Virus record (IMG/VR): IMGVR_UViG_3300034082_001032
Source of the DNA: a virus
Lineage: Duplodnaviria; Heunggongvirae; Uroviricota; Caudoviricetes; Crassvirales
Direction: 5' to 3' (one strand)
Length of the DNA stretch: 64,000 bases
Under the pieces are notes generated by a model. It was not told the origin of the DNA. It saw only the letters and a list, made by a program, of their open reading frames with translations, and searched no databases. A program made the position numbers and the translations under genes. Below are positions 1,262 through 57,811 of this stretch, piece after piece. Within the stretch, counting starts at the first letter, position 1. The number at the start of each line of letters is the position of its first letter.

Positions 1262-1264
1262 TGG

Positions 1265-2086: not shown

Positions 2087-2111
2087 TATGTTTGTTGGTT
2101 TTAATGTTCAA

Positions 2112-2462: not shown

Positions 2463-2468
2463 AGCTAA

Positions 2469-12591: not shown

Positions 12592-12595
12592 ATCA

Positions 12596-35009: not shown

Positions 35010-36353
35010 TTATTTATATTTCTCTAACCAACCACCGTTCTTTTTCTTTTTTGTTTCATAATATCCAGAAACATTTCCAGGACTTGATATTTTATTTTCC
35101 ATAAAGTCTTTATTCAGATTTTTTATAAATTCTTCACCTTCTTTATCTGAGGCAAAGTATTGTGAGTTTCCTGAATAATCTACTCTGTAAGGAAGATTGG
35201 GAACAGTTTTATTCAGAGCAGTGGGCGTTTCCATTTTACTAATAGGCACAACAAGATCTTTTTTTGTTTCTCGTTGTGGTTTTGATTCTGGTTTTTTAGG
35301 TTCAGGCTTTTTATACTTAACAGGCTGTACAGGTTTTTTATAGATAGGATATCTAGTACTAATAGCTTTACCAAGGTCAGTATCTAAATACACTTTCAAT
35401 TCTTTACCTGACTTAGTAGGATAATAATTAAAATATCTTGGATTCCCTTTTTCATCTCTATCAAAACCACCTCCTGGATTTTGTAAAATTCCATACTTAA
35501 TTGCTCCTATTTTAGGATTTACATCCTTGTCAACATATCCATCTGTTGTCCACTCTTCTACATAAGAAGGATTAAATCCTTTAGAAGTAATAGTATTTAT
35601 ATAGTTACTTTTAGCGTCTTTAAATTTATTATATAAACTTAAGCTGTCTTGATATGATTTAATTCTTTTATCTTTTGGATTCTCTGTATATATAGTGGGA
35701 AGTTGACTTTCTTTTGCTATAGGTTTTTTGTATAAATATTGATTACCTTTTTCTGTATACATACCTATTCTAGGATCTTTAGGATTATCTAAATATATAG
35801 GTGGATACTTCTTTGTATATGCAACGCCTGGATTTGGAACTATCTTTCCACCTGGTTGCATTACAGGGTATTCTGTTACTGATTCTCCATCAAACTCATA
35901 GTCTTCTCCAGGATACATCATTTGTGTGTCTCCTGTATCAGAAATGCCAAGAAGGGGTTCATACACTCCTTGCATTGTTATTTCATTACTTCCTATTTCT
36001 ACAGGTTCTCCCCAGTTATCAGGATTCCAATAACCCATGTCATCCTTCTTTATTTTAGATCCCTGCTTACTAATATTCCTAGGTTTCCAATCTAGTCCTT
36101 CTTGGTAGAATTTCATTTCCATTCCATTCTGTGCACTAGCCTTTGTCTTCTTTGCATAAGGACCATTGGAAGGAATACCTCCCGTACGTGCATACGTGAA
36201 TCCTACAGCACCAGGCATAGATCCTCCCATCTGCATTGTGCCACCCCATGCACCATTGTAATTGAAACCAATGTCTGTCAATCCACCCATTGTTCCTTCT
36301 ATACCATTTTGTGCTATAGATATGTCCTTATATTTATCAAGCCACTTTTTCAT
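35010..36353 (-). CDS. Virion/tail protein (447 aa), unknown function
   Basis: Intact ORF. Its ATG at 36353 overlaps the stop of the upstream gene. Confidence 0.5.
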   Translation of the reverse strand: MKKWLDKYKDISIAQNGIEGTMGGLTDIGFNYNGAWGGTMQMGGSMPGAVGFTYARTGGIPSNGPYAKKTKASAQNGMEMKFYQEGLDWKPRNISKQGSKIKKDDMGYWNPDNWGEPVEIGSNEITMQGVYEPLLGISDTGDTQMMYPGEDYEFDGESVTEYPVMQPGGKIVPNPGVAYTKKYPPIYLDNPKDPRIGMYTEKGNQYLYKKPIAKESQLPTIYTENPKDKRIKSYQDSLSLYNKFKDAKSNYINTITSKGFNPSYVEEWTTDGYVDKDVNPKIGAIKYGILQNPGGGFDRDEKGNPRYFNYYPTKSGKELKVYLDTDLGKAISTRYPIYKKPVQPVKYKKPEPKKPESKPQRETKKDLVVPISKMETPTALNKTVPNLPYRVDYSGNSQYFASDKEGEEFIKNLNKDFMENKISSPGNVSGYYETKKKKNGGWLEKYK

Positions 36354-37225
36354 TACTTGTAGGAGATTTGAGCAGGTGTGTAAATAAATTGACTAACCAA
36401 ATGTACGTCATCTTTGTCATCTAATATATGCCTCACCTTTAGATCTTTAGCTCTTAGAGGTTCTTTTTTGAAACTGCGTTTGGAGTAGTCCATATTCACT
36501 TGGTTAACAACTTTATCAATTGACATAGACTCACAAGTTGAGTTGAATAGTGTAACTGTCTTATCCTTAACCAATCCCCAGAATGTATTATATTGATAGA
36601 AGTTATCACTCTTTGTGAACGTAATTGTCTTACTATCAACGTTATACACAGGATACTTCATGTATTCTTTTAGGTTGTGCATTGGTTTGGGAACCAACTT
36701 AAGAACACCTGAAGACTGCTGATCGTTGTACAATACAGCTTTATTGAAATATTGATTGTCTGTTTGTACTTTCCTACTGTCATCAAATACACCATCCGTA
36801 CTAGGGAAGTATCTGTATGCCTTAGTGTAGTCTTTTACATTCTGTAAAATCTCATCATGATATTGATATGCAAATGGATATTCAATCATGTACGGTCTAA
36901 TACATCCGTAATATGTATTGTATATTACAGGATTCGTAAGATGTCTCCACAGAGATGCCGTGTTCTTTTCTTGAAACTTAATAGCAGCTAATTCTGTTAC
37001 ACAAATTTCTGTAACTGGAATGTTCCATACTTTTGAACAACAATTTATCCCTGTAGAAGTTAGAACAACCACTTTTACAGAATCATTTACACTAAGAGCT
37101 AGTCCCTCAATCAACTTCTTCTTGGGCACATCAGTAGCGAGTACATTTCCCATATCATCAGATATGGAAAATGTAGTCACTCTACTGCCAGCCTTTTTCA
37201 ACTTTATGACAATTGTCTTAGACAT
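36353..37225 (-). CDS. Tail-associated protein (290 aa), unknown
   Basis: Intact ORF in the tail block. Confidence 0.5.
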   Translation of the reverse strand: MSKTIVIKLKKAGSRVTTFSISDDMGNVLATDVPKKKLIEGLALSVNDSVKVVVLTSTGINCCSKVWNIPVTEICVTELAAIKFQEKNTASLWRHLTNPVIYNTYYGCIRPYMIEYPFAYQYHDEILQNVKDYTKAYRYFPSTDGVFDDSRKVQTDNQYFNKAVLYNDQQSSGVLKLVPKPMHNLKEYMKYPVYNVDSKTITFTKSDNFYQYNTFWGLVKDKTVTLFNSTCESMSIDKVVNQVNMDYSKRSFKKEPLRAKDLKVRHILDDKDDVHLVSQFIYTPAQISYK

Positions 37226-37235
37226 ATTTATTCAT

Positions 37236-37865
37236 TTACGGTATAGGACATGTTGTACATACATCAGCTAATGTTTCTACACCTTCAACATATGTTTGAT
37301 TATCAAATGATCCTGGAGTAATTGATGTAATTTCTAGATTAGCTCCAGTTTCATTAGGATCAGCTACCAACGTTGTTGTTCCACATGTTTCTCCTGCTAA
37401 AATTGTAACAGTTCCAGATATTGTACTAGTATCAGAAGCTGTCCATGTAACACCAACTGTAAGAGTTGTAGCTACAGGAAAACTAGCATATGCATATATC
37501 AATACATTACCAGATGGATCAGCCTGTTGACTACCGCACGCATCAATTGTTACTGTTAAAGGAGCTGCTGTAGTTGTAGTGGTTGTAGTGCTACTTGTTG
37601 ATGTAGTGCTTGTACTACTAGTTGTAGTTGTAGTGGTGGGAACCAAATAAAGATCTATGTAGTTTGTACATAAAACATTATCTGATTTCACCCTAACTAT
37701 TGTAGCTCCATTAGGAATAAGTGTAGAAGTGTATCCAGCAACTAAAGAAGTTTTACTTACACCTGTTTCAAAAGGAACTGAATATCCGTCAATGTCTGAA
37801 TAAAGATCAAAGGGTCCTGTATCAGCTCCTGCGGTTGTTAATGTTATTAATGCTGTTTGTGCCAT
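37236..37865 (-). CDS. Small fibre/decoration-like protein (209 aa) with a poly-Thr linker, ending in 'CPIP'
   Basis: 'PTTTTTTSSTSTTSTSSTTTTTTTAAPLTVTIDACG' linker separates two beta-rich halves. The 'TTTTTTTAAPL' junction is identical to one in the preceding 1565-aa protein. Confidence 0.5.
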   Translation of the reverse strand: MAQTALITLTTAGADTGPFDLYSDIDGYSVPFETGVSKTSLVAGYTSTLIPNGATIVRVKSDNVLCTNYIDLYLVPTTTTTTSSTSTTSTSSTTTTTTTAAPLTVTIDACGSQQADPSGNVLIYAYASFPVATTLTVGVTWTASDTSTISGTVTILAGETCGTTTLVADPNETGANLEITSITPGSFDNQTYVEGVETLADVCTTCPIP

Positions 37866-37876
37866 ATTCTTATTTA

Positions 37877-40800
37877 TTAAGGAATTGCTGTAGTTGTTGT
37901 TGTGGTGGTGGTTATAGGTTGTATAGTTCCTGCAAGATTACATAGAGGAGCAGCAGTAGTAGTTGTTGTAGTTGTGCTTGTACTAGTTGTTGTGGTTGTG
38001 CTACTACTTGTTGTAGTGGTCGTAGTTATAACCGATATTGTACCAGCCAAATTACAATTAAGTGCAGATATGGTTCCTGCTAAGTCACAATTTGGAATAC
38101 ATGGAACTTCTTCAGCAGCAATTGCTTCAAGATCACAACTTCCATTAATTCCTGAATAGAAGAAATTATTCTCAGCAATATACCAATTAGGAATATAACT
38201 ATGGAAGCTTATCCATGAATTAGTATTGAAGTTGAAAGAGAGAGTCCATGACCTATTACAGAAATACTCTGAATCTGAAAGATCTATAAATGTTTTTACA
38301 ATTATTTCTCCATAAGTTTTATTAATATAAAACTGTTGAACAGAGGCATCATATTTTATATTAACATTCAGAGGAATATAATCCAACTTGGATATAATCA
38401 CCCTGTCAAACTTGCTATCAAATACACCATGTAAACCAACACCATTGAAATGGTTGTCTATGTTTACGTTTGGATAATACCTAAGTATTTCAAATGCTAG
38501 GTGATCTGTAAAGAACCTATTAAGTCCTGAACCAAATCCTGACAAGTCTGTAGCACCGTTTCCTGTTATCAAGAACACTTGTCCTCTCTTGGCATCTATT
38601 GTAATTTGTCCTTGAGGTATCTTTAGAAGCATCTTGTTTTGGCTTCCTACATATCCCAAATCAGTTTCTGCAAAATCAATTGGAGGAGCACTGAACATAT
38701 CAGGATTACCTACATATGCTGCCTGAGGATTACTTGTATTGATTGTAAGTAAGTTATTGTATAACAATGACTTATTTTCAAACCTTGCTAGTATACTTCT
38801 ATTTTGTATACCATCCAATGATGTAAGATTTCCGTAATTCTGTGGAAAATCAAAATATGACAATGGGCGATAGATTAGCCAATTGTTAGTGTTGTTATCT
38901 GTAAACTTCTCTTGTTTATCTGAATATATTGCCCTGAATGGATAGTTTGTTAAACATTCATCAGCAGTCCAATTTATAGGCAGATGGGAGAAAAAGTTTT
39001 CTGTATTCTGCTTAGAGAATGTAGCATTGTAATAATATGTATTATCCTGAGCAATTGTTACAAAGCTTTCTTGCAACCATTCATCAGGAATACCTGTGCT
39101 CACGTGTGGATAGAATTCACCTTCTCTATTGTTAAATGCTTGCCTAAGGTCTACATTCACTGACGACTCGCAGTAGAATGTAGGAATACCATAGGCAAAT
39201 AGATACATCTTTCCATCATAGAATGTTCTATCAGGATTGACAACTGGAGGTGTGTAGTTAGGAAGAGGAACAGGAAGCTGATTGTTTGGACAATCCAAAC
39301 GACTAGCTTTTATAGAAACTATATTTTGAAACTGATAAGTGTCAGATGGTGTAACCACTTCCCAATCATACAGAATAGATCTTGCAGAATACCAATACTC
39401 TGGATAAGCAATATTACCTATCTCATCGTAGAATATATCTGAGTCATCAGGTGCCCCAACTCTATTGTCAATAAAGAATGGAAGTTTAGTTTTAAAAGAA
39501 AACTTATTGATGAATGTGTCTCCACCAAAAACTGTAACAATTGGTTCAGCTGTAGAATCTATATTTCTCTGAAACCCTGTATCAATCGTAGTGTAAGAAT
39601 ATATTTGTCCCCACTGGTTTGCAAATATGTTTTTTATAGATCCATAATACGAAACAGTGGATATAGCAAACTCTTCATTAGGTCTAGCACAATTACTTTG
39701 CAAACCACCATTTGGACTTGGTGTCTCAGAAACAACATATCTTGACAAATCATCAATAGCACTTTGTCCAGAACCAAGTGATAAACTTTGTGTGTTGCTA
39801 GGAAAAGGAAGAGGAATTACATCTTTATCAGTCTTTAAATATATAGATGATTCTCTTTCATAATTGTTGATATTGTATAGATCTCCTACATTTTGTACTC
39901 CAGGGATGAGGTATTGAACAATATCTAGTTCTCTTTGCTTGATTCCAAGATCGTTAGCAATAGGAGCCCAATAATCATATTCTGCTATAGAATTATAAGA
40001 ATATGTAAAGTTTCTTCTAGTGATACCGTTGATGTATATTGTCAAGTAAGATTGATACACAGCAAACATTGCAGAAGCATTGAATGTAGAAGTGATGTCA
40101 CCTACAGCAGCACTTGATTGTAATGCATCTTCTTGAGCTTCTCTACTAAGAAGTTTATATAAGGCATGTTTTTTAACTTCTACAAAATGTGCAGTTCCTG
40201 CACCAAATATTGCATTCTCAAGCTTAAGTATATTTCCAAGAAAAGGACTTCCAAAAGATGTATCAGGAGAATTAAAAACTTGTCTATATCTAGATTCATC
40301 TGTTGTAAATGCGCTCAAGTTGTCTGGATAGCAATAGTTGTTGTATCTCCAACTTGTTTGAGTGATACTAAATATATTATCTCCAGCAATTTTTACAGGT
40401 ACTGTTAAAGCTTTAACATTAATTACTACAGGAATAACTGAACTAACAGTGACGTTCTGTAAAGTGTTTGTTACAGGATCTGTGTAACTAAACACAGTAG
40501 AGCCTTGACTTGTAAGCTCGTATGTTGTATAAACGAATCTTTGTGCTGTATCATACAACAGTGTTGGAGATCCTACTATTGTACCTGAGTTAACTACAGG
40601 CAATGTTAAAGAACATACCACTTTATTAACACCGCTTAAGAAGCTGTCTGTTTTTTGAGTGTTTGTGTTACAATCTGTATAACTATAAGATCCATCAGAT
40701 GTTGGAACTAACTCGTATATATTACACTCACTATTGTAAGAATTACTTTCCTCAAGTAAGAATGGATCTTCTCTAAGGTCATTATATGGATAGTTAGGGA

Positions 40801-42574
40801 AATAATACTTAGTTCCCTCTCTTTCGTATTTACCCACATTCCTAAGAATACCTTTTGCTACAATTGATTTATTTACATTACGGTTACCCCTAACAATCTT
40901 AAACCCAACAATATTATCTTTTTCTTCTTGTGTAAGATCCGATGTAAGAATTAAACTTTCTACTTGAGTAGAATCTAATCTAACACCTATAGGGAATATA
41001 GCTCTATCCTCAATTTTTAAATTAGTGTATTTACCACTAAGTTCAACTGTAGGCTGACCACTTTCAAATATAGGACTTACAAGAACATCTGGAAACTTAT
41101 GATGTCTGATGGGTTTGTTCGCAAGAACTCCCCAAACATTTTCATTACATGGATAGACTTCTGTAGATTCCCAATATGCAAATTCACCATATTCATATGG
41201 TGTAGCATTTCCAATATCTTCACCTGTAGCTGGTCCAGTTACAGAAGCTGTGTTGTATATTTTCCAATAAGGAGCACTTGTACCACTTCCTATAAAGTCA
41301 GGATTGGTACTAGGAACATTTGGTTGTACTAATTCTGTAAAGCTAATGTCTCTACCAGGAATATGAAAACCATCTGTTTGTTTACCGTTCTTAAGAAGGA
41401 ATACAATTTCAAATGCATACACTTCATCTCTAAGGTAACCTCTAAGATTGGTTGCATTTAACTCATCTGCATAATCTTCATTTGCAGGGAGTTTGTAAGT
41501 TTGCCACTTAAGACTTATCTGACTTGCAATCTTTTGATAATTCACTCTGTCTATGGATGTGAGATTGTCCCAAACAAGAACATCTTGAACAGCTGTCAAG
41601 TCTTGTGCAATGTCATAATATGGAAACTTCTCAAATATATCATCAACAGTGAGTCTAATCTGTGTTTGATTTTGACCAGTGTATGTTATTTGATTAGTGG
41701 AGTCATCAATAAAATAAGTTCCAACAAGCTCAACAGAAGTGATGGCGTTTACAGTTTTTATCACTGCAAGGTTGTAATACTGGAAGTAACCAGTCACGTC
41801 TATGTTTGAAATATCCAATATAATAGCCTTACCAACAGGATAGTTAAAGTCAGGTGTAATTATTTGAGGATTTGCAATTGGTGTAGGATTGGTTACAGAA
41901 TAATATGATGTGTAAGCATTTCCATCAGCATCACAGTATTGTATTGCAAACTGATATGTACCAGCTGTCAAGTTTCCTGTATTGTTAACATCAACTACAT
42001 CAAGTGCTGGGATGTTAAAGTTTGGTTGAATTTTTAACTTGTTACAATCAAGTTCTGGTATGGTTCTGTTGTCACAAACATCTGTGCCAGGTTCTATTTT
42101 ATATGATTTGGTGACATCATCAATGTTGATATACCTACGAGAATTAAGTCCATCTGTCCAATAAATCTCTGTTGTACAATTTGTTATTTTATGTACAGAC
42201 TTATGAATTGGATAGTTGATGTTGAAGTTTAGACAATTCCCACTAATGAATTTACGATATATGCAATCATTATTATCCATATAACCAATCTCAGAAGCTC
42301 CTGTATTAGGATTGGTTAGAAAGAATATATGCTTAGCTTGCTCATTTATAAAATGAGTTCCTATCAAATGGTATTCTTCAGGAAAGTTTAAACATAGTTC
42401 ATTACCTGGCTCATTCTGATAGTTTACAGAATTTGAGTCATAGTTTTCCACAGCTGCATTCAAGGCATAGGTGAGTTGTCCCTTCTGAACTTGGTTCAAA
42501 GTTTGATCCATGTTCAGCCCTGTTCTTGCAACATTATTCTCTTGAATAATATTTGATTGTCTTTGATCAGCCAT
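37877..42574 (-). CDS. Large tail protein (1565 aa; candidate tail spike or receptor-binding protein) with C-terminal 'C(D/N)LAGTI' repeats separated by poly-Thr linkers, ending in 'AIP'
   Basis: Beta-rich, Asn/Tyr/Thr-rich composition typical of tail spikes. C-terminus is '...CIPNCDLAGTISALNCNLAGTISVITTTTTTSSSTTTTTSTSTTTTTTTAAPLCNLAGTIQPITTTTTTTTAIP'. Confidence 0.6.
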   Translation of the reverse strand: MADQRQSNIIQENNVARTGLNMDQTLNQVQKGQLTYALNAAVENYDSNSVNYQNEPGNELCLNFPEEYHLIGTHFINEQAKHIFFLTNPNTGASEIGYMDNNDCIYRKFISGNCLNFNINYPIHKSVHKITNCTTEIYWTDGLNSRRYINIDDVTKSYKIEPGTDVCDNRTIPELDCNKLKIQPNFNIPALDVVDVNNTGNLTAGTYQFAIQYCDADGNAYTSYYSVTNPTPIANPQIITPDFNYPVGKAIILDISNIDVTGYFQYYNLAVIKTVNAITSVELVGTYFIDDSTNQITYTGQNQTQIRLTVDDIFEKFPYYDIAQDLTAVQDVLVWDNLTSIDRVNYQKIASQISLKWQTYKLPANEDYADELNATNLRGYLRDEVYAFEIVFLLKNGKQTDGFHIPGRDISFTELVQPNVPSTNPDFIGSGTSAPYWKIYNTASVTGPATGEDIGNATPYEYGEFAYWESTEVYPCNENVWGVLANKPIRHHKFPDVLVSPIFESGQPTVELSGKYTNLKIEDRAIFPIGVRLDSTQVESLILTSDLTQEEKDNIVGFKIVRGNRNVNKSIVAKGILRNVGKYEREGTKYYFPNYPYNDLREDPFLLEESNSYNSECNIYELVPTSDGSYSYTDCNTNTQKTDSFLSGVNKVVCSLTLPVVNSGTIVGSPTLLYDTAQRFVYTTYELTSQGSTVFSYTDPVTNTLQNVTVSSVIPVVINVKALTVPVKIAGDNIFSITQTSWRYNNYCYPDNLSAFTTDESRYRQVFNSPDTSFGSPFLGNILKLENAIFGAGTAHFVEVKKHALYKLLSREAQEDALQSSAAVGDITSTFNASAMFAVYQSYLTIYINGITRRNFTYSYNSIAEYDYWAPIANDLGIKQRELDIVQYLIPGVQNVGDLYNINNYERESSIYLKTDKDVIPLPFPSNTQSLSLGSGQSAIDDLSRYVVSETPSPNGGLQSNCARPNEEFAISTVSYYGSIKNIFANQWGQIYSYTTIDTGFQRNIDSTAEPIVTVFGGDTFINKFSFKTKLPFFIDNRVGAPDDSDIFYDEIGNIAYPEYWYSARSILYDWEVVTPSDTYQFQNIVSIKASRLDCPNNQLPVPLPNYTPPVVNPDRTFYDGKMYLFAYGIPTFYCESSVNVDLRQAFNNREGEFYPHVSTGIPDEWLQESFVTIAQDNTYYYNATFSKQNTENFFSHLPINWTADECLTNYPFRAIYSDKQEKFTDNNTNNWLIYRPLSYFDFPQNYGNLTSLDGIQNRSILARFENKSLLYNNLLTINTSNPQAAYVGNPDMFSAPPIDFAETDLGYVGSQNKMLLKIPQGQITIDAKRGQVFLITGNGATDLSGFGSGLNRFFTDHLAFEILRYYPNVNIDNHFNGVGLHGVFDSKFDRVIISKLDYIPLNVNIKYDASVQQFYINKTYGEIIVKTFIDLSDSEYFCNRSWTLSFNFNTNSWISFHSYIPNWYIAENNFFYSGINGSCDLEAIAAEEVPCIPNCDLAGTISALNCNLAGTISVITTTTTTSSSTTTTTSTSTTTTTTTAAPLCNLAGTIQPITTTTTTTTAIP

Positions 42575-42576
42575 TG

Positions 42577-43545
42577 TTAATTATTACGTCTCCAACCATA
42601 TCTGGATACTCTGTTTGGTAACTCGTACATGTTGAACCTATTCAGGTCATTCTTGATTCTCCTTTGTTTTGTCCAAGCATCCTGCTTCTTAATCTCAATA
42701 TCTGCCATGATGAATGCCTCATCTGCGAGATTTTTATAATAACCTAACTTCTGTTGTATTTGATTAAACGTCTCATCGTTTATTTGATTAGACAGAGTTT
42801 CAAACACTTTATATTTGATGAATGCTTCAATATACTCTCTGATACGGAAGTTGTCTGGAATCATTTGGTTTCCACCTGCATCATATTCTGTAGAGTAGAA
42901 TATCATATGCACTATTCCGTTTCTAAAGTTTGTTACAAATTTATTGTCTCTAATGTCAAATGAATCATAACCAGCAGATCCTGGAGTGAACTCACGTAGA
43001 GGAGGTGCCTGTTGATAGAATTCCCAGTTGTTGTTATATTCTACACTACAGTTTTGTCTTGCAGATATATTACCTGGTTTTAACAAATATGACCTTTCGT
43101 AAGATCTGGCTATAGAGTTATTTGTTTTATAAACAGCTTGTATCAACTCAGGCATACACTCAGGACATCCTGTTGTACATTCAAGATTTGTGCAGGGCTG
43201 TCCTCCAGATATTACAGGACTCACTTGAATAGTTGTAACATCAGCAGCCTGAGAATAGAATGAATTGGCTGACTGGTAAGGATATTGAGGAATCTCTGTA
43301 CACATCCAAGCTTCTCTTACAGCATAAAAGTTGTCTGGAAGCCTTGCTTGAAAATCATCAATATACAAAGGTTGTTCACTAATTACATATGTGGTTCTTC
43401 CAAGCTTTCTTAAACACTTGTCCAAATATGTAGGAAACATCAAATCATCTACAGCACCTGTGTCAAAATAAGACTTAAGTTCTTCTTTGACTGTAGAGTA
43501 GACAACTTCTGGTGAAGTGAAATTATATTTATAATAGTATGACAT
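42577..43545 (-). CDS. Tail protein (322 aa), unknown
   Basis: Intact Cys/Tyr-rich ORF 3 nt upstream of the 1565-aa gene. Confidence 0.5.
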   Translation of the reverse strand: MSYYYKYNFTSPEVVYSTVKEELKSYFDTGAVDDLMFPTYLDKCLRKLGRTTYVISEQPLYIDDFQARLPDNFYAVREAWMCTEIPQYPYQSANSFYSQAADVTTIQVSPVISGGQPCTNLECTTGCPECMPELIQAVYKTNNSIARSYERSYLLKPGNISARQNCSVEYNNNWEFYQQAPPLREFTPGSAGYDSFDIRDNKFVTNFRNGIVHMIFYSTEYDAGGNQMIPDNFRIREYIEAFIKYKVFETLSNQINDETFNQIQQKLGYYKNLADEAFIMADIEIKKQDAWTKQRRIKNDLNRFNMYELPNRVSRYGWRRNN

Positions 43546-43548
43546 AGT

Positions 43549-44022
43549 TTATTTTTTCCATTCTCTGTAGATGTGCTGATACTTTTCATTAGTTTTTATA
43601 TAATGAGACAGGAGTCTGGATGTGGTTCTTGATGGTTTAAAGTACCAAAGATCTGAATTCTTAAGTCTTACGTTTTCTCTAAACCAAACCCATCCGAAGA
43701 AGTATCCCTCAGTGTGATAGTTGAAGTTGTAAATCACCTTACCTTTCTCTTTGGTCTTTTGCCAATCAATGGGGAGATTTACAAACTCATCATTAAGTCC
43801 TTTTCTTTTCCTTCTTTTCTTTTTGTTGATTGAGAATTCACCAAACCCAAAAGGAAGTTTTGCTTTCTCGCCTGTCTCTAATATGTAATTTTTGAAAGAC
43901 TCATTGAATGAATAGATGATATTTTTCCATTCATCAAATGATATTTTTATTGATGGGTTCTTTTTACAAAAACTAACGTAGTTATCTTTACTCGAACTTC
44001 TCCAATCTATCTTTACTCTCAT
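43549..44022 (-). CDS. Hypothetical protein (157 aa), basic
   Basis: Intact ORF. Its ATG overlaps the stop of the upstream ORF at 44022. Confidence 0.45.
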   Translation of the reverse strand: MRVKIDWRSSSKDNYVSFCKKNPSIKISFDEWKNIIYSFNESFKNYILETGEKAKLPFGFGEFSINKKKRRKRKGLNDEFVNLPIDWQKTKEKGKVIYNFNYHTEGYFFGWVWFRENVRLKNSDLWYFKPSRTTSRLLSHYIKTNEKYQHIYREWKK

Positions 44023-44750
44023 TACTGGGTATTTGTTGAATTAGGTGCTTGCCCATCTACACCTTCTGAAGTTTGATCTGTTTTAAGTCTAAAATATGTA
44101 GTGAGGAGCTTTTGAGAAGTTAGTTCCAAAACTTGTTTTTCCAAATACCCAGGAAGAGCATAAGGTTTATCGAGAGGGTTTTTACACCATTCTGAATCAG
44201 TATATTCTATACCACCACATCCACACTCAGGAAACATAATCTCATTAGGAACATCTTGTTCAAACAAAGCTGAAATTCTAATAGCTTGAATAAGTGGATT
44301 ACTGATGTACAAATAACCATTCATAATCCAGAAATAACTTTCTCTCTTTATGATGGGAAGTTTTATAAGATTTACATATCTGTTTATTGTAATCTCTTTA
44401 AACTTAGTTCCTCTTCCACTTAAAGCATTTATAGAATAAACACCTTGAATAATATATTGATAGTTACCTTCAGCTATGCGTGGAAGTTTGTATCTAGTTC
44501 TTGCAACAGTGCAAGGATCAACAAAATCACAACATTCGGAAATAGGAACTTCCACCATTTCCAAACAAGGAATGGTTGTAAACAAAGTGTCAGTAGCCCA
44601 AAGCTTTCTGAGATTTGTTTCTCTCTTGATTAACAAGAGTGCATTATTTTTGACTTCAGAAGCCACAGCTCTGTCAGTGATAAGGTTGTCTGTAGACAAC
44701 AGCTTATGCATAGAACGTACGTCTGAAACTAATTTTCTTAATGTTGACAT
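44022..44750 (-). CDS. Hypothetical tail protein (242 aa)
   Basis: Intact ORF. There is a start/stop overlap at 44750 with the upstream gene. Confidence 0.45.
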   Translation of the reverse strand: MSTLRKLVSDVRSMHKLLSTDNLITDRAVASEVKNNALLLIKRETNLRKLWATDTLFTTIPCLEMVEVPISECCDFVDPCTVARTRYKLPRIAEGNYQYIIQGVYSINALSGRGTKFKEITINRYVNLIKLPIIKRESYFWIMNGYLYISNPLIQAIRISALFEQDVPNEIMFPECGCGGIEYTDSEWCKNPLDKPYALPGYLEKQVLELTSQKLLTTYFRLKTDQTSEGVDGQAPNSTNTQ

Positions 44751-46003
44751 TATAAATACTGTTTGAATATATTTGTCATTCCTTGTTCAAAATCTATAAG
44801 AAATCCTGTAACTTCAGCTCTTGAGATTGTGTAACCATTTTTCTCATCCCAAGAACTCTTAGCATTAGAGAATGCAGGTATTTGATAAAACTTAATTCCA
44901 CCAAAGTCAATACTTAGCTCGTGATGTTTATCTCCAGTGAATATATAGAAGTTCTTGTTGTTTGACCATTCTTCTCTAAATTCTATTGGGAATACACTAG
45001 CAAGCTTTGCAGGCTTCATAGCATCGCCATGATTAAACATCATTGCTGTTTCTCCATAACTTACATACTTTCTGTATCTAGGAGAACAGTCAAATGTAAC
45101 TCTTAGATTACTTTTGAAGTATGCATTTAACCAATTAATCATATGCCATCCCACAAACTCATCATGATTTCCAGCTACATAGACAACTTGTACATCATCT
45201 ACATTCTCAAGAAGCATCTTTATCATTTCTACCTCATGATTACAAATCCTCTCGAAAGAATCATGATAGGTGAGAAGGTTCTGTTGTGGAGTTCCTTTAG
45301 TTGTAGTTCCTGTAAATTCACTGTTGAATTCATCAGAACCTATAATGTAAATCACACTTTCCATGTAATTTGACAAGCTAGCTTGATTCACAATGATCTC
45401 CACTTTGTTTAGAATATTAGAGAACCTTTTGTTTATATCATTGTCCCCATCTACATCAAATTTATTTAGATGGGAGTCTTGTTTATTGATAATCAAACAT
45501 GCTAAAGACTTATCAGGATTTTGTTCACGCAATTTAACTTCTGAACATTTAGGCTGATACTCTTTGAGAAACTCAACAAATGAGTCTTGGAACAGTTGCT
45601 CACTAGTTTTCTTAGCCATCCAGGCTTTAACCTGCCAATGAGGAGTTTTAGAATTTCCCCAATAGTTCTGGACGTATTTAGTTATTTCCCATTTAGATGT
45701 GTCAATCTTACTCTTTTCTATCAGTTCTTCCAAAGATTTAATCTCATCTGGAGTATTGAAAACCACTTCACCAATTCCTTTAGATACATCTTCTTGATAT
45801 TTAATGATTGCATCTTCTAGCTCAGTCATGTAACTAGAAGCCTCAGCATCATCACTTATACTACTTGTACTATTTCTAAGTTCTTTTAACAGTTCATCCA
45901 CCTCAGCTTCCGTAACTCCTAACTTATCAGCATAAAACTTCTTGCTCTTTTTCCAATTCAGCATGTTTTGAAGCTGATTTAAAAGGTGTTGGTTGCCGAC
46001 CAT
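44750..46003 (-). CDS. Calcineurin-like metallophosphoesterase domain protein (417 aa)
   Basis: Phosphoesterase motifs are in order: 'IIGSDEFN' (GD), 'VYVAGNHDEF' (GNHD/E), 'MMFNHGD' and 'FTGDKHHE' (GDxHH). Confidence 0.55.
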   Translation of the reverse strand: MVGNQHLLNQLQNMLNWKKSKKFYADKLGVTEAEVDELLKELRNSTSSISDDAEASSYMTELEDAIIKYQEDVSKGIGEVVFNTPDEIKSLEELIEKSKIDTSKWEITKYVQNYWGNSKTPHWQVKAWMAKKTSEQLFQDSFVEFLKEYQPKCSEVKLREQNPDKSLACLIINKQDSHLNKFDVDGDNDINKRFSNILNKVEIIVNQASLSNYMESVIYIIGSDEFNSEFTGTTTKGTPQQNLLTYHDSFERICNHEVEMIKMLLENVDDVQVVYVAGNHDEFVGWHMINWLNAYFKSNLRVTFDCSPRYRKYVSYGETAMMFNHGDAMKPAKLASVFPIEFREEWSNNKNFYIFTGDKHHELSIDFGGIKFYQIPAFSNAKSSWDEKNGYTISRAEVTGFLIDFEQGMTNIFKQYL

Positions 46004-46204: not shown

Positions 46205-46540
46205 TTAAAGAGGAAGAGTGGTGGTTGTTGTTGTACTTGTATAATAATATGTGCAATTGTTTACTAAATTACAAAAGCTAACATTCAATGAAGGGTTTGT
46301 TAAAATAGTCTGAAGAATAGTCTGAACCAATGTGACAGGGTCAAGTTCATTATCAATCTTTTCTAAAACCACATTCAAGTTATCTCCTGTTGTTACACCT
46401 GTATTTGGTAAAGTTGGACCATTATAGCAAATAAGATTAGAATTTATTGGATATCCAGCAAACCAGCCATTGTTACACTTCTTTGGATAGACAGAGTTAA
46501 CAACAACAGGATTACAAGGAGAACCTGGTACACAAGCCAT
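46205..46540 (-). CDS. Small fibre-like protein (111 aa) with the shared N-terminal module, ending in a poly-Thr C-terminus ('TTTTTTLPL')
   Basis: '...GDNLNVVLEKIDNELD' matches the 'NDNLQTALEKID' core of the fibre anchor module. The N-terminus is Cys-rich. Confidence 0.45.
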   Translation of the reverse strand: MACVPGSPCNPVVVNSVYPKKCNNGWFAGYPINSNLICYNGPTLPNTGVTTGDNLNVVLEKIDNELDPVTLVQTILQTILTNPSLNVSFCNLVNNCTYYYTSTTTTTTLPL

Positions 46541-48644: not shown

Positions 48645-49802
48645 TTAAGGAATCAAAGTGCTAGTAGTAGAAGTTGTAGGCCATACAGTGGTGGTAGTAG
48701 ATGTAGTGCTTACACAAGCATTATCATCAGCTACAGAACCAAGACCTGCTACAAGAACCGCTTGAATAGCAGCAGTGAGTGCCTGAGGAACAGCAATGAT
48801 CACCATTGCATCTTCCTTAATGTAATCACCCCAAGAATAGGCAGACTTGTCATACTCGTTAAACTTGATGTAGAAGGTATCGTAGGTAGTACCGTCAGTT
48901 ACCCAAGACTCAAAGTTTTCGTTATAACCAGCCATCCTATAGAGATGCTTCAGGTAACCAGCTTGATAGCTGTAGAAGTTTTTCTCCAATTGCTTAATCT
49001 CATCAGAAGTACCTGAAGGGTAAGAAGCACGTTGAGTAACTTCAGCATTAGCTACAATGTTACAAGCATCTGCTACAATAAAGTCAGCAGTTGTAGCTGG
49101 TCCACTGTATACAAATGTACGGAAATACATTCTGTCATACTCCCAAGGGAATGCAGCAACATCACAAGGCTGACCATACTTGGTAAGAGGCTTACCAGAA
49201 ATACGGAGGATAGCATTCTGATCGTTACCAATCCTTTGGAATTGATAGAAATCATTGAAGTTGATGTTGTCTGGGTTGTTACCAGGAGCTTGCAAAGTCA
49301 ATTGAAAGATAAACTGATCAATCAATGCAGGAACATCAACGTTCTCACAAGGATCACCACCACAGTCACAGCAAGGAGCTTGAACAGTCACTGAGCGAGT
49401 GAACCCATTGAAATACAGAGTATCCAGATAAGAAGAATGGGCACGGAGTGTAAGGGTAACAATGTCACCACACTTTACGTTCCAACCATCAACATCAGTA
49501 ACTTGAGTAGCAGGTGTTGGACAACCAGTCACTTTATACCACTCGGTTACATTGGATTTACAAGTTCCTTCAACGCAACCTGCAATTTTGTCAGAGCGTT
49601 TTGAACCTTGAAGATAAGTGTTTGTTCTACCTTGAGCGAGATAAAAGTATGGTTTAGCAGCGATGTTAGCAGCAGTTGCTACACTATAATCACTTCTAAA
49701 GATACCAAACTGTCCTGCGGACAGGCCTTGCGTAGAACCAGAGCTAGGTAGAGAGTTTCCTACTGGAACTACGAAGAGCGTAGTTAATGAGAAATCAGCC
49801 AT
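48645..49802 (-). CDS. Structural protein (385 aa), probably abundant, ending in a Thr-rich tail 'TTSTTTTVWPTTSTTSTLIP'
   Basis: Beta-rich, with a Cys cluster 'APCCDCGGDPCEN'. It is followed by a strong terminator, which suggests high expression with attenuation. Confidence 0.5.
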   Translation of the reverse strand: MADFSLTTLFVVPVGNSLPSSGSTQGLSAGQFGIFRSDYSVATAANIAAKPYFYLAQGRTNTYLQGSKRSDKIAGCVEGTCKSNVTEWYKVTGCPTPATQVTDVDGWNVKCGDIVTLTLRAHSSYLDTLYFNGFTRSVTVQAPCCDCGGDPCENVDVPALIDQFIFQLTLQAPGNNPDNINFNDFYQFQRIGNDQNAILRISGKPLTKYGQPCDVAAFPWEYDRMYFRTFVYSGPATTADFIVADACNIVANAEVTQRASYPSGTSDEIKQLEKNFYSYQAGYLKHLYRMAGYNENFESWVTDGTTYDTFYIKFNEYDKSAYSWGDYIKEDAMVIIAVPQALTAAIQAVLVAGLGSVADDNACVSTTSTTTTVWPTTSTTSTLIP

Positions 49803-51744: not shown

Positions 51745-53298
51745 TTAGAATTGTGGGATCTCTTCAATCAAAACTGTACGAGACAAGTCTTCAATGAATA
51801 CATCACAACGGTCTTTCATCCAGATCTCATAACCAGGGAACTTGTTAGCTGAGCTCATACCCTGAGACTTAGCAAAACCAAGGTGGTGACGAGTTCCGTC
51901 AATATAACCCCAAGTCATAGAAGGAGCACCTTTCATCCTTACTTCACGGATGTTGTTCACCATTGAACCATCGCTCATTGGAGATACGTCAAACACCATA
52001 AATACAGGAGTAGATTTCTTGTTCTGACCAAATTCAAGGTTAGATTGTGGAAGATCCAATTCTTTCAAGTGAATCAGTTCAACACGACCAGTCTCACGAG
52101 TAACCATTGCATCAAATGCAAAGTTGTAAGTGATGTGCTGTCCTTCTCCTTGCATATAACGATTACCGCTATCTGCCATGAAAGTCAAGCCAGAATTCAA
52201 AGCATCTGTCTTAAGAGCTTGCTGGAATACATCGAAACCAGCTTCGTTTGTATACATTTTAACACGACGGTCTTTTACATCAACCCTACGATAGAACAGA
52301 TCTCCGAAAACTGAACGGATAAGGTTAGCAGAAAATTCACCACGGTTATATTGAACCAAGTTACCATTGTTACGCATCCTGTGATAAACACCAGCAGAAG
52401 TACGCTTCAATTCTTGCTTAGAACCATTTGTTTTAACAGTACCAGGCTTAGCCCAAATCATACGCTTAACTTTCAACTCAAGCATAGACTTACGCATCCA
52501 GAACTCAATGAATGGTTCCCATTTAACATCATTCCTAGTCAAAGGAAGTTGGTTCCTACGCTGTGGAGCGTAAACCAAAATGTCCAAAGGTTTGCCAGAA
52601 GCATCACGCATCATTTTGTCATCAGCCCACTCAGTGATTTTGTGCTCAAAACCATATGCAGAACCAAGAGATTCGAACATAGTGATTTGCTCACCCAAAC
52701 GAGGAAGACCCAAAAGATCTTGATCAAATTCACCGATAGCAGCATCAACAAGCTCAAGTTCAATTCCGTATTGCAGGAAAGTTGGGCTTACGAAGTCTAC
52801 AGTTGGGTTATCAGTGATGAGAGTGAAGTAATAAAGGTAGCCCATGTTCCAAGGAACTGGATCCTTAATAACGTAGAAACGAGGACCATACTGACGAGAA
52901 CCTACAGAAATAATAGCATTCTTAGAGAACTCATTAGTATCAAGAACAAGAGAGAACTCTTGACCATCAATACCAGGCTTAAGCAATTCTGCTGTAGAGC
53001 TTGGGATGTCGATGATTTTAGGGAACTTGTAAGGAACCGCAACCTGCCACTTCCATGCATCGCTGTTATTGTCGATGTAAAAAGGAGTAGACTTGTTGAT
53101 CATGTCCAAAAAGTCATTGCTGTAAAGAGAGCTCTGTGTGTAGAGGCTGATGATTTTCTTGTCGTAATCAGCAGGCTCAGTTGAGTGGAAGCTCTCCAGG
53201 TGGTTAGCATCAGTGAGCTTACCTACGGCACGTTTGTCCATAGAAGCAACACGAGCATACGTGAAACCAGTTAACCCTGGGATTGTTTGAATTGCCAT
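51745..53298 (-). CDS. Major capsid protein (517 aa; HK97-fold expected)
   Basis: Size and position: after portal and scaffold-like genes, and followed by a hairpin and palindrome. The layout matches the crAss-like TerL-portal-...-MCP order. No motif-level confirmation is possible by eye. Confidence 0.6.
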   Translation of the reverse strand: MAIQTIPGLTGFTYARVASMDKRAVGKLTDANHLESFHSTEPADYDKKIISLYTQSSLYSNDFLDMINKSTPFYIDNNSDAWKWQVAVPYKFPKIIDIPSSTAELLKPGIDGQEFSLVLDTNEFSKNAIISVGSRQYGPRFYVIKDPVPWNMGYLYYFTLITDNPTVDFVSPTFLQYGIELELVDAAIGEFDQDLLGLPRLGEQITMFESLGSAYGFEHKITEWADDKMMRDASGKPLDILVYAPQRRNQLPLTRNDVKWEPFIEFWMRKSMLELKVKRMIWAKPGTVKTNGSKQELKRTSAGVYHRMRNNGNLVQYNRGEFSANLIRSVFGDLFYRRVDVKDRRVKMYTNEAGFDVFQQALKTDALNSGLTFMADSGNRYMQGEGQHITYNFAFDAMVTRETGRVELIHLKELDLPQSNLEFGQNKKSTPVFMVFDVSPMSDGSMVNNIREVRMKGAPSMTWGYIDGTRHHLGFAKSQGMSSANKFPGYEIWMKDRCDVFIEDLSRTVLIEEIPQF

Positions 53299-54695: not shown

Positions 54696-55226
54696 CTAAT
54701 CAAGTTTGTTTATGATGGAGTCATTAATTATCCTAAAACTTCTGATTGGAGCAATGTCTGTAAGTGTCACTTGTTGTATATCAACTCCCCACTTCTTTGC
54801 TTCAACCCTCACTTTTTTAGTAAGAACATTATCTATGTCTGGAGCTAAACATTCTTCTAAGGATGTAGTGATTATGATGTTTTTTATAATGGACTGCGTA
54901 ATGTCAGACAAGGCATCCTGTGCATCATAGACTTCCAAAAGGAATATCTTAACGTCTGATATCTTATATTTAATAACTCCTTTCACCACAATGTTCTGTT
55001 TATCCTGTGTGTACAAGGACTGTGGAGCAAGACTGAGTGTAGTTACTACCACATGCTGTGATATAACGTCATCAAATATTGGAAGTTTCACGTGGAACCC
55101 TGGACCTAGCACTTTTCTAAACTTACCATTTCTAAGAAGAACTGCTTCTTCATAGCTTGGTATAATGATTGCTGGTGACACATAGTGCCACCAGTCTAGT
55201 AATAAGTCTATAAGTCTATCAAACAT
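54696..55226 (-). CDS. SPFH/band-7 (stomatin/HflKC-like) domain protein (176 aa)
   Basis: 'VVKGVIKYKISDVKIFLLEVYDAQDALSDITQSIIKNIIITTSLEECLA...KKVRVEAKKWGVDIQQVTLTDIAPI' follows the SPFH pattern, ending in the ...WGI.V..V.I.DI.PP core. There is an N-terminal hydrophobic segment. Its ATG overlaps the portal stop. Confidence 0.5.
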   Translation of the reverse strand: MFDRLIDLLLDWWHYVSPAIIIPSYEEAVLLRNGKFRKVLGPGFHVKLPIFDDVISQHVVVTTLSLAPQSLYTQDKQNIVVKGVIKYKISDVKIFLLEVYDAQDALSDITQSIIKNIIITTSLEECLAPDIDNVLTKKVRVEAKKWGVDIQQVTLTDIAPIRSFRIINDSIINKLD

Positions 55227-57811
55227 TATTTAGATTTTTTAGCTCGTCCTTTAGCATTTTCTTTAGCAACAGCTAAGTCGTTTGCTTGATTCTCTCTAGC
55301 AATCTGTAACTTCTCTCTTTCAAGCTGAAGTTTCTCAGCAGCAAGCCTGTTCTTATTTTGAATGTCAGACATCTTAAGTTGATAGTCTTTTGCAGCTTTG
55401 GCTTCCTCGCTTGCAAACCTACTCATCTCAAGAACATCTGGAACTGCATTCTGATTAATATCTTCACTCTCCACTTTACCAAATCCTGTAGCTTGGATGA
55501 TGGCAATCTCTTTCTTACTAATCCTGTCAAGTTCTTTTTGATAGTTATCATTAGCAATCTTCTGCTCATTTTGAAGTTGAGCTTGTTCCAATTGGGCTTC
55601 AGCAATTTGTTGCTGTTGTTCCATTTGTTGCTGCTGTTGCTGCATTTGTTGATCCTGAAGCTGTTCCTGCCTTTCTTTTAATGTCTTAAACACTTTCTTC
55701 ATTCCTCTTATTGAGTTCGTAGAATAGAGCTCTATTACATCGTGGAGTGATCCTCCGTTCTGTAGAACAGCTTGAGACAAGCCTCTGATTTCCCTAAACA
55801 TCTCTCTATCTTCAGGACGATTTGTAGCAAACACTTTGAGGTCACGGAATCTAAGATCTGTACCGTTCACCTGAACAAATGCAGACTCTCCTTCAGATGT
55901 AATATATGAAAGAGTGGATTGTGGCTTTTTACTTTCTACATACAAAGAAGCATCAATAACTGCTTGATACAATTGTCCAAGTACATACTCATGAGCTACA
56001 AAAAGAGGTTCTGTTTGAGAATAACTCTGTTGGATTGCAGCATTTGTACCTGTAGCAGATTCACTGGCTGATATAGATCCCATCCTTTGTCTAGACATAC
56101 CAATAAGTTCCCAACACTCATTCTTCAATTGCATAGCAAGTTGATAACGAGATTGAATCTCCTGCGTACGTGTAAGGTCAATATCTCTAAACTGATTGAA
56201 GCTAGATGGACTTTTGAGGTTCTCAGGGGAGTCATCTATGAACACAACTCCTCTGTTCCTAGCTTCCATTTCCCAAATATCAAGAGCATCTTGTGCATCT
56301 CCATCTTTGGGAACTGGTACGTGCCTGATAGATGTCAAATAAACCTTACCCACTTCTTTCTCAAGGAGCTTATAAAGCTGATTCATACATACATTATACA
56401 ACACCTGGAAAGGCTTCATCAGATCAACCAGACTCTTAGCCTCAGTGTTCTTCACTTCATAAGTAATACCTATAATTGGGCAATAGTTCAAAAGATTGAA
56501 TGGTTTGATGTGGTAGATGTCTGGTCCAATCTTTGTACCCTGATACCACTGATTAATCCAACCCCATTCCAAAGATTGTTCTGTAGGAATAGTTCCTGAT
56601 TTGTAGTTTTCATCAACAAGGGTAGATTGTTCATTTCCCATCTCATCTACATAAATCAACTTTCCAATTTTTCTTTTACTAAGCCAATAAGTTCTAACCA
56701 CTACATACTTGTAACCAAAAGAGGACACATTAGATGTAAGTCCTAAGAAATCTTTAAGACCATCGTTGTTCTCCTTCATTTCACTCTCGATAATCATACG
56801 GGTTTGAAGGACCAGTGGATCAAATGTATCGTAAGTAACTGAGTCAATACCAGGACTGACATTCGGATTACCTAGATTAGATTCACGGACATTAATCAGT
56901 CCATAGTCTTGGAGAGAACTTCTCAAATGGTCAATTTCATCTTTGGTTAGGTCAGGAATACTCTCAATAATTTCTGAAAGTTCCATAACCTGCACTGTAC
57001 CAGCAGCATAAGCACCTTGTGCTCTACCTGTAGGATCAGATATATATTTCCTATCTGGTGTTGTTAAAAACCAGGTGTTCTTTGGATTAGCCACTTCAAT
57101 GTTATACCCAACCTTTGAGTTATCCTCGTAGATGTGATAGTATTCACGAGCAGAAATAAGCATGTCTCTAAATGCATCTTCTGATTTCTCTTTCAGATTG
57201 AAGTCTGCTTTCTGACAGGTGAGAACATGGTTTGCCCACTTTTCAGCTACAGAAGTGTAACTGTCAAGCTCATCCTTCACCTCATCGAAAGTCATTTGTT
57301 GAACTTGTTCGTCATCAACTTCTTCTCCAGACATGGCAACCTTTTCCATAATCTTCTGTCTTGCCTGAGCCATTACATAATCTTGGAGAATCTGTGTTTT
57401 AAACTCAAGCTCTTCAGATTGACTATCGTCATCAAATGCTTTAATTCTAAATGCATCAGGACGCTTAGATATCTCACCAACAAGTTCGTTAATTGGTGTA
57501 GTGATGATTGAATAATGTTTTACATAAGCAGGAAGATTCAAATCAGCCGTAAGCATATCTGTAAAACTTTTTACTTGTGGCTCCTGATAGAAGTCTTCCA
57601 TTCTAAGGATGCCCTTGACAAGATCGTAGTTTTTAACAAATGTATCCCTATTTTTTACATACTCAGCATATGCCTTGTTAGCAAAATAATCCATTGTGTT
57701 CTTAATCCAACTCTCGTCTCTCTTCTCTTTTTCAGTTTTGAACTGATCGGGAAATATGTTCAGATAGGCATACCTAATCGTAGCATCTTTCGTATATCTT
57801 ATAATTGCCAT
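55226..57811 (-). CDS. Portal protein (861 aa) with a Gln-rich coiled-coil C-terminal extension
   Basis: Immediately downstream of TerL, with a start/stop overlap at 57811. Size is typical of crAss-like portals. C-terminal 'QEQLQDQQMQQQQQQMEQQQQIAEAQLEQAQLQNEQK'. Confidence 0.65.
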   Translation of the reverse strand: MAIIRYTKDATIRYAYLNIFPDQFKTEKEKRDESWIKNTMDYFANKAYAEYVKNRDTFVKNYDLVKGILRMEDFYQEPQVKSFTDMLTADLNLPAYVKHYSIITTPINELVGEISKRPDAFRIKAFDDDSQSEELEFKTQILQDYVMAQARQKIMEKVAMSGEEVDDEQVQQMTFDEVKDELDSYTSVAEKWANHVLTCQKADFNLKEKSEDAFRDMLISAREYYHIYEDNSKVGYNIEVANPKNTWFLTTPDRKYISDPTGRAQGAYAAGTVQVMELSEIIESIPDLTKDEIDHLRSSLQDYGLINVRESNLGNPNVSPGIDSVTYDTFDPLVLQTRMIIESEMKENNDGLKDFLGLTSNVSSFGYKYVVVRTYWLSKRKIGKLIYVDEMGNEQSTLVDENYKSGTIPTEQSLEWGWINQWYQGTKIGPDIYHIKPFNLLNYCPIIGITYEVKNTEAKSLVDLMKPFQVLYNVCMNQLYKLLEKEVGKVYLTSIRHVPVPKDGDAQDALDIWEMEARNRGVVFIDDSPENLKSPSSFNQFRDIDLTRTQEIQSRYQLAMQLKNECWELIGMSRQRMGSISASESATGTNAAIQQSYSQTEPLFVAHEYVLGQLYQAVIDASLYVESKKPQSTLSYITSEGESAFVQVNGTDLRFRDLKVFATNRPEDREMFREIRGLSQAVLQNGGSLHDVIELYSTNSIRGMKKVFKTLKERQEQLQDQQMQQQQQQMEQQQQIAEAQLEQAQLQNEQKIANDNYQKELDRISKKEIAIIQATGFGKVESEDINQNAVPDVLEMSRFASEEAKAAKDYQLKMSDIQNKNRLAAEKLQLEREKLQIARENQANDLAVAKENAKGRAKKSK

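Follow-up and report, generated by a model that had tools for sequence, protein, structure and literature searches.

Glycosylated linkers rich in Ser, Thr and Pro are well known, and so is the glycosylation of phage virions. In the serine-rich-repeat adhesins modified by GtfA/GtfB, and likewise in the Pro/Thr-rich O-glycosylated linkers of cellulases and mucins, long stretches of hydroxy-amino acids interrupted by Pro form extended, glycosylated spacers between modules. Tracts of this kind are found in the phage sequence described here, IMG/VR record IMGVR_UViG_3300034082_001032, of which a stretch of 64,000 nucleotides (hereafter, the window) was analyzed: several of its virion proteins carry poly-Thr tracts closed by Pro, and it also contains a glycan-modification cassette. 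The tracts of adhesins, cellulases and mucins are of variable length and belong to secreted cellular proteins, whereas those of the window show units of seven or eight residues and belong to the virion. A GT4-type glycosyltransferase (GT) is described for the adhesin system and is also present in the window, and the T-x-x-P spacing of the unit recalls the preference of mucin-type glycosylation for Pro at +3.

Mycobacteriophage capsids are glycosylated by phage-encoded GTs (Freeman et al. 2023, as cited in PMC11256854). Following the account in PMC11256854, Che8 and other cluster F1 mycobacteriophages resemble the window in phage-encoded GTs and in a capsid-surface protein as the proposed substrate, which would be modified in the cytoplasm before lysis; that case was shown experimentally, in actinobacterial siphophages and with different enzymes, whereas the window case is a prediction. 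Unlike in the mycobacteriophages, several proteins here share a discrete poly-Thr unit as the proposed acceptor, and genes for methylation and sulfation are also found in the cassette. TibC, a GT9-related enzyme, glycosylates protein serines (PMC4358343). Finally, the auxiliary capsid protein gp36 of ΦcrAss001 (333 amino acids (aa); PDB 7QOF; Bayfield et al. 2023, PMC10172136) is present in nine copies per asymmetric unit of a T=9 capsid, where pockets of the capsid protein and gp36 bind the head-fibre N-termini.

The Thr/Ser unit in outward-facing virion proteins

The window comes from a divergent crAss-like phage whose late genes are all on the minus strand. Its protein families were compared with 2,733 unique open reading frames (ORFs) from about 270 related loci, which were assigned to the window families by BLASTP. 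The loci of the relatives span only ±10 kb, and the capsid tail and the cassette are about 45 kb apart. The proteins concerned and their Thr/Ser (T/S) tracts are:

48645-49802, minus strand: 385-aa auxiliary capsid protein, homologous to gp36 of ΦcrAss001
48648-48710, minus strand: its double Thr-unit tail of 21 residues, STTSTTTT-VWP plus TTSTTST-LIP, found in 68/68 unique relatives
37877-42574, minus strand: muzzle protein gene, 1565 aa (PF25731 crAss_MUZ; phrog_37948, 1e-108)
37955-38026, minus strand: muzzle T/S linker of 24 residues (aa 1517-1540), followed by AAPL at 37943-37954
37880-37912, minus strand: muzzle terminal Thr unit, T8 (aa 1555-1562) plus AIP, followed by TAA TAA
37236-37865, minus strand: 209-aa two-domain accessory protein (N-domain aa 1-74, C-domain aa 105-209)
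37557-37637, minus strand: linker of the 209-aa protein, T/S23 plus AAPL, joining N-domain to C-domain
46205-46540, minus strand: 111-aa fibre-type protein, Cys-rich N-module plus terminal Thr unit
46208-46240, minus strand: terminal unit of the 111-aa protein, TSTTTTTT-LPL
12596-12853, minus strand: 85-aa fibre-type protein, N-module plus T/S tract plus AP, without C-terminal domain
12605-12706, minus strand: T/S tract of the 85-aa protein, 34 residues
46560-47603, minus strand: 347-aa fibre, N-module plus putative tail-collar-like C-terminal domain, without Thr tract

In the ORFs of the relatives, T/S runs are seven or eight residues long in 331 of 619 internal and 113 of 131 terminal cases, and Pro is found at +3 after 63% of the internal and 49% of the terminal runs. 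The tripeptides which most often follow a run are AAP, VWP, ATP, VAP and IAP; AAP closes 51 of the 619 internal runs and is the commonest unit ending in the clade. Since run length peaks sharply at 7-8 and Pro sits at +3, the repeated element is a unit, T7-8-x-x-Pro, which consists of seven or eight Thr/Ser, two mostly small or hydrophobic residues and a Pro. Units occur single, in tandem (TTTTTTTTAAP TTTTTTTVEP TTTTTTTTIEP TTTTTTTTVAP in the relative L014) or as the close of a longer T/S stretch. In the window they close as AAPL, AIP, SAP, VWP, LIP and LPL, which correspond to x-x-Pro or x-Pro-x. The poly-Thr tracts are very probably copies of one clade-specific linker unit.

Terminal Thr units are distributed unequally among the families: 68/68 in the 385-aa family, 35/74 in the 111-aa family, 23/68 in the muzzle family, 19/121 in the 209-aa family and 3/60 in an 88-aa family. 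The remaining families, which include the large terminase (TerL), portal, major capsid, ring and cargo-like proteins, show none. The unit is therefore confined to virion proteins that face outward, namely the auxiliary capsid protein, the N-module fibres, small accessory proteins and the muzzle, in which it lies in the distal appendage. Within a protein it joins Cys-bounded modules and marks the joints where the modules of relatives differ, whereas at a C-terminus it makes a Thr tail. The internal tracts have the make-up known from O-glycosylated Ser/Thr-rich linkers: hydroxy-amino acids interrupted by Pro, placed so as to separate the folded modules of an exposed protein.

The muzzle protein was identified by its PF25731 match (precomputed, on record for an identical 1565-aa protein) and by its position after the ring proteins, with CrAss_Ring_2 and CrAss_Ring_1 upstream. 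Its conserved core ends near ...GSCDLEAIAAEEV (CDLEAIAAEEV is conserved in relatives) and is followed by a variable C-terminal appendage, which in the window contains C-x-L-A-G-T-I mini-repeats and Thr units and finishes as ...ITTTTTTSSSTTTTTSTSTTTTTTTAAPLCNLAGTIQPITTTTTTTTAIP*. Across 17 relatives, the muzzle C-terminus is hypervariable and shows mixes of Thr units, mini-repeats and small Cys-bounded domains. The mini-repeats (aa ~1490-1554; 37880-38100, minus strand) are tandem copies of about 12 residues, C-x-L-x-G-[TS]-[AVI]-x-x-x-x, similar to the strand with which the conserved core closes, and reach up to five copies in the relatives L105 and L111.

The 209-aa neighbour of the muzzle reads ...LVP-T/S23-AAPLTVTID... 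and ends in CPIP*. Its N-domain and C-domain are found separately in relatives, and the N-domain-only versions end in a Thr unit. Many of the small proteins at this position in relatives end in C, CP or CPIP, and the gene of about 200 aa after the muzzle belongs to several unrelated families or is absent.

A similar picture was found in the fibres. The N-module of the 111-aa protein ends in Cys; in relatives it is followed by a stop, one Thr unit, several units, or a Thr linker and unrelated domains, and the last type reaches 200 to 1273 aa. In the near-identical phage L270 the version is 222 aa long and continues from the same N-module through a Thr linker into an additional domain. In the relative L224, a 131-aa version of the 85-aa protein shows a globular C-terminal part in place of the tract. 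These comparisons show that Cys-bounded modules of the 111-aa, muzzle and 209-aa families are swapped between relatives at Thr units. The 347-aa protein, which ends in YYIMYIP*, matches PHROG tail-protein families at 1e-18 and 2.5e-17 and a "tail collar fiber" family at 1e-3 (phrog_8763, phrog_8469 and phrog_1800), with no Pfam match at E ≤ 0.01; none of its 91 relatives shows a Thr unit.

Two further N-module proteins are encoded beside the 85-aa gene:

4608-12380, minus strand: 2590-aa fibre, N-module plus two G-[T/S]-[T/S] collagen-like arrays
12409-12594, minus strand: 61-aa N-module ORF

The Cys-rich N-module (C..C..C.Y.G..L...G...D.L...L.KI) is common to the 347-aa, 111-aa, 85-aa, 61-aa and 2590-aa proteins, and it is presumably the virion-attachment module which the fibres have in common. 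The 61-aa ORF nearly duplicates the N-terminus of the 2590-aa protein, and in the relative L213 the N-module directly begins the giant protein. A 103-aa ORF at 12409-12720 (minus strand) is an ORF-calling artefact, in which the 61-aa gene is extended upstream through the 85-aa T/S tract in an alternate frame (LQVQLLLAQAQ...). The arrays of the 2590-aa fibre (aa ~330-705 and ~795-1100) sum to about 700 residues of triplets, which account for a rise of the GC content to 0.43-0.46 at 8-12 kb and for long spurious ORFs on the opposite strand. The gene is the immediate upstream neighbour of the glycan cassette, and the T/S-rich fibre is a further candidate substrate.

A previous sequence-only reading of the window had pointed out five T/S tracts, a TTTTTTTAAPL junction common to two of the proteins, and four proteins ending in -IP. 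All of these are correct. The -IP dipeptide ends 4 of 41 window proteins, compared with 0.14 expected from the proteome-wide frequency of IP (binomial P = 1.1e-5; about 0.004 after correction for the 400 possible dipeptides), so the excess is not due to chance. It was proposed there as one common signal of four tail proteins; however, one of the four, the 385-aa protein, is an auxiliary capsid protein, and the endings differ in origin. Relatives keep -IP in only two of the families, the 385-aa (56/68) and the 347-aa (82/91), where a C-terminal Pro is found in 68/68 and 91/91, respectively; it is not conserved in the muzzle (5/68) and 209-aa (8/121) families. Two of the -IP endings, those of the muzzle and the 385-aa protein, are the x-x-Pro close of a Thr unit. 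CPIP of the 209-aa protein finishes a Cys-bounded folded domain and is no part of the unit. The ending of the 347-aa fibre, which has no Thr tract, is of separate origin and belongs to the conserved C-terminus of the tail-collar-like domain. A link of -IP to the N-module, which had also been put forward for checking, was rejected, because only the 347-aa fibre of the five N-module proteins ends in -IP. A stronger regularity than the -IP count is that four of the eight window T/S runs of at least six residues halt two or three residues before the stop codon. Thus, most of the odd -IP endings are explained by the T7-8-x-x-Pro unit, and the dipeptide itself is not the signal.

The shared TTTTTTTAAPL junction had been taken as a trace of domain shuffling through Thr-codon repeats. 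At the level of families this holds, as modules are exchanged at the tracts. A recent DNA exchange between the two AAPL junctions was rejected: different codons are used for four of the seven residues, and the two long tracts have no DNA word of more than 12 nt in common. The junctions are identical because AAP is the commonest unit closing. The Thr tracts of the window share only DNA words of 6-14 nt and are therefore poor recombination substrates at present.

The tail of the auxiliary capsid protein

Sequence searches of the PDB with the 385-aa, 1565-aa and GT9-like proteins gave nothing useful, and fold comparison was therefore needed. The 385-aa protein shows a two-domain fold, PH-like plus FliD-like, and its gene is located in the capsid module downstream of the Crass_capsid gene, in the order portal, Band_7, 413 aa, Crass_capsid (517 aa), 322 aa, 243 aa and 385 aa. 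It is a gp36-like auxiliary capsid protein, which would be located on the capsid exterior at 1:1 with the major capsid protein. In comparison with the 333 aa of gp36, the window protein adds the 21-residue double Thr-unit tail, and ends in STTSTTTTVWPTTSTTSTLIP*. A copy number like that of gp36 would give several hundred tails over the capsid surface.

Selection on the tail was analyzed in 50 distinct tail-coding sequences from relatives 80-100% identical overall. Most of the 21 positions show little or no amino-acid variation (entropy zero or close to it), and yet each is encoded by three to seven codons. No exception was found to Trp at -12, Leu at -3 or Pro at -1, and Ser at -18 is kept in 98%; the 24 residues preceding the tail vary freely (entropy 0.6-2.6 bits). 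The tail is under strong position-specific purifying selection, as its amino acids are fixed while its codons vary. Furthermore, among 50 full-length representatives of 50%-identity clusters, 17 have a T/S tail of about 20 residues and 33 stop right after the core, which indicates that the tail is an add-on gained in part of the family and then held constant.

In the literature searched, no description was found of a quantised poly-Thr unit, of a C-terminal Thr copy on a crAss auxiliary capsid protein, or of a poly-Thr unit paired with a GT9-fold/sulfotransferase/APS-kinase cassette, and a search for poly-Thr tails on phage proteins gave nothing relevant.

The glycan-modification cassette and the proposed function of the unit

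The sequence-only reading suggested that the Thr tracts could be O-glycosylated by a GT/sulfotransferase cluster at 1-4595. The cluster is indeed present, is conserved in relatives, and contains:

314-4595, minus strand: glycan-modification cassette, on the same strand as the structural gene block and at its 3' end
314-1261, minus strand: GT9-fold enzyme, 315 aa
1265-2086, minus strand: sulfotransferase (Pfam)
2112-2462, minus strand: 116-aa unknown protein
2469-3068, minus strand: FkbM methyltransferase (Pfam)
3026-3937, minus strand: GT4-type glycosyltransferase (Pfam GT1/GT4-type)
3930-4595, minus strand: 221-aa protein, weakly GT2-like

With NCBIfam profiles, weak similarities to the sugar sulfotransferase NoeE and to GT4 enzymes were obtained, all of which fall well short of the cut-offs of the families. 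The GT9-like protein shows a GT-B fold closest to GT9 structures, and a profile search gave no PDB sequence match for it. Just left of the window, in the same phage, an APS kinase gene (148 aa) and a nucleotidyltransferase-like gene (128 aa) follow the cassette (L187:3052-3853). From the adjoining APS kinase, the phage appears to supply its own sulfate donor, 3'-phosphoadenosine 5'-phosphosulfate (PAPS), for the sulfotransferase. At least 597 relatives of the 128-aa gene are found in IMG/VR, some of them on very large contigs of 150-320 kb.

The pair of GT9-like and sulfotransferase genes was found in all 17 relatives with a recognisable giant fibre gene upstream and in nine further loci. The rest of the cassette slot varies between relatives, the GT4 plus the 221-aa protein being one filling. 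In L198 (1708-4825) it contains four 2OG-Fe(II) oxygenases of prolyl-hydroxylase-like Pfam families, and in L204 (623-9473) an epimerase, a UDP-glucose dehydrogenase and a carbamoyltransferase. In L189 (7060-9240), genes encoding a PfkB kinase, a HAD phosphatase, a cytidylyltransferase-like protein and a cupin lie next to the GT9-like gene; the first three resemble three of the four steps of the ADP-heptose pathway.

The explanation which we favour overall, and consider somewhat probable, is that the clade-specific Thr unit serves as linker and tail and is O-glycosylated by the cassette. Units would form extended, hydrophilic spacers and tails; the late cassette of the phage would O-glycosylate them in the cytoplasm before assembly, with a glycan possibly methylated by FkbM and sulfated by the NoeE-like sulfotransferase using PAPS from the APS kinase; and the outcome would be a mucin-like coat on the virion. 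Taken by itself, glycosylation of the units by the cassette is, on the gene content, quite possible but tentative. A narrower form, in which the GT9-fold protein would be the O-glycosyltransferase (possibly for heptose) of T7-8-x-x-Pro on the auxiliary capsid protein, muzzle tip and fibres, and its glycan would be sulfated with phage-made PAPS, is rather unlikely.

Several points weigh against glycosylation of the units. GT9 enzymes are classically heptosyltransferases of the lipopolysaccharide (LPS) core, and the cassette could instead act on host LPS or capsule, or on the (G-T/S-T/S)n arrays of the adjoining 2590-aa fibre. The GT9-like protein matches no Pfam family at E ≤ 1, and so has no GT9 sequence match. 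It has only two Cys (122 and 297) and a Rossmann-like fold which starts at about residue 27, and the N-terminal beta-barrel, beta-hairpin thumb and four-Cys iron finger of the bacterial autotransporter heptosyltransferases (BAHT) were not found in it, in contrast to TibC/AAH acting on TibA/AIDA-I (PMC4358343). BAHT acceptors are serines in beta-helix repeats, whereas poly-Thr is the acceptor proposed here, and the window enzyme matches LPS heptosyltransferases equally well as BAHT. Tail and cassette are both present in every relative examined, and their association could be explained by plain common descent. The closest cultured relative, Leptolyngbya phage Lbo-JY46, does not show Thr tails. 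Finally, the residue-level conservation of the capsid tail, with its fixed Ser and invariant Trp, suits a docking peptide at least as well.

Docking is the main rival. The tails would be unmodified peptides in which a Thr spacer carries a hydrophobic end (VWP, LIP or AIP) that fits a pocket of a neighbouring subunit, as an assembly clamp. The invariant Trp, Leu and terminal Pro and the fixed length of the capsid tail favour it, as do a few non-Thr spacers of distant capsid-protein relatives, which also end in PLTP, PIVP or LTLP. Terminal Pro goes with having a tail (13/17, compared with 5/33 of the tail-less representatives), and in ΦcrAss001 the N-termini of head fibres are held in pockets of the capsid protein and gp36 (PMC10172136). 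However, x-x-Pro also closes the internal units, far from any C-terminus, the terminal endings of the fibres and muzzle are very loose (LI, IM, V, LL, AAP, PPL), and the capsid tail was modelled at low confidence (predicted local distance difference test, pLDDT, ~42). We regard docking as an unlikely account of the tails; it is compatible with glycosylation.

A second rival holds that the terminal units are neutral leftovers: functionless linkers which lost, or never gained, a downstream domain by Thr-DNA recombination. The N-terminal parts of the 111-aa, 209-aa and muzzle proteins do occur with and without downstream domains, their terminal endings are variable, and L270 has its 222-aa version of the 111-aa gene in an otherwise near-identical phage. 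The capsid tail, kept in all 68 relatives and conserved as protein over varying codons, is left unexplained, terminal runs are as sharply 7-8 long as internal ones, and the short words shared by the window tracts make them poor substrates now. This explanation is improbable.

A frameshift or readthrough at a Thr run, fusing for example the muzzle with the 209-aa protein or the 85-aa with the 61-aa protein, is most improbable and was rejected on sequence grounds: the next gene begins 9-12 nt past the stop and the 209-aa frame is open back through the muzzle Thr run, but the composition of (ACN)n is enough to keep all three frames open, slippery heptamers of the form X XXY YYZ are absent, paired stops are found at both junctions (TAA TAA after the muzzle protein, TAA TGA after the 85-aa protein), the two junctions would require different shifts, and gaps of ~200 nt and ~90 nt follow the 111-aa and 385-aa tails.

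The lineage and what the unit means

The structural block of the phage, with further genes of the late region, contains:

57811-59841, minus strand: TerL (PHROG and Pfam matches)
55226-57811, minus strand: portal (PHROG and Pfam matches)
54696-55226, minus strand: Band_7 (SPFH) domain protein, 176 aa, directly after the portal gene
51745-53298, minus strand: crAss-type major capsid protein, 517 aa, Crass_capsid (PHROG and Pfam matches)
44750-46003, minus strand: 417-aa SbcD/Mre11-like "DNA repair exonuclease" (phrog_704, 3e-47)
44022-44750, minus strand: ring protein 2, CrAss_Ring_2 (PHROG and Pfam matches)
42577-43545, minus strand: ring protein 1, CrAss_Ring_1 (PHROG and Pfam matches)
36353-37225, minus strand: 290-aa protein

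The SbcD/Mre11-like gene interrupts the tail and fibre block, with the 111-aa fibre on one side and ring protein 2 on the other. The match of the 290-aa protein to phrog_15100 is confined to the C-terminal end of that family (1587-1777 of 1783), whose N-terminus is matched by the muzzle protein. The two may be one polypeptide in some other phages; throughout this clade the 290-aa protein has a gene of its own. No tRNA genes were found in the window, and a supply of tRNA-Thr by the phage was rejected.

A nucleotide search of 36-50 kb of the window against isolated phages gave no match, and tblastn with the 385-aa protein against isolated phages found nothing; by capsid protein, the nearest isolate is Leptolyngbya phage Lbo-JY46, with 26% identity. 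In metagenomes the lineage is very common: when 8,000 candidates from a word-index search with the 385-aa protein were scored, 3,627 proteins reached E ≤ 0.001, and relatives are found on at least 595 IMG/VR stretches. Homologues occur in three bins of metagenome-assembled genomes, one of Cytophagales, one of Sediminibacterium (both Bacteroidota) and one of Woesearchaeota, which are a weak hint, suggestive only, of a Bacteroidota host. The clade is one of very abundant, environmental crAss-like phages, which probably infect Bacteroidota.

With this comparison, a highly conserved "hypothetical protein" of 385 aa is re-identified as an auxiliary capsid protein, and the unit offers a simple annotation rule for exposed virion proteins and domain boundaries in these genomes. 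Irrespective of any modification, it explains how host-contact proteins diversify, by swapping Cys-bounded modules at Thr joints. If the tails carry glycans, phage virion glycosylation would no longer be limited to a few mycobacteriophages but would include a crAss-like lineage that is widespread in the environment, and a short transplantable acceptor motif would be defined together with a compact enzyme set. Should the narrower reading of heptosylation and sulfation be true, the phage would provide the first case of a sulfated, mucin-like virion, and the unit would be a portable acceptor tag for cytoplasmic protein glycosylation.

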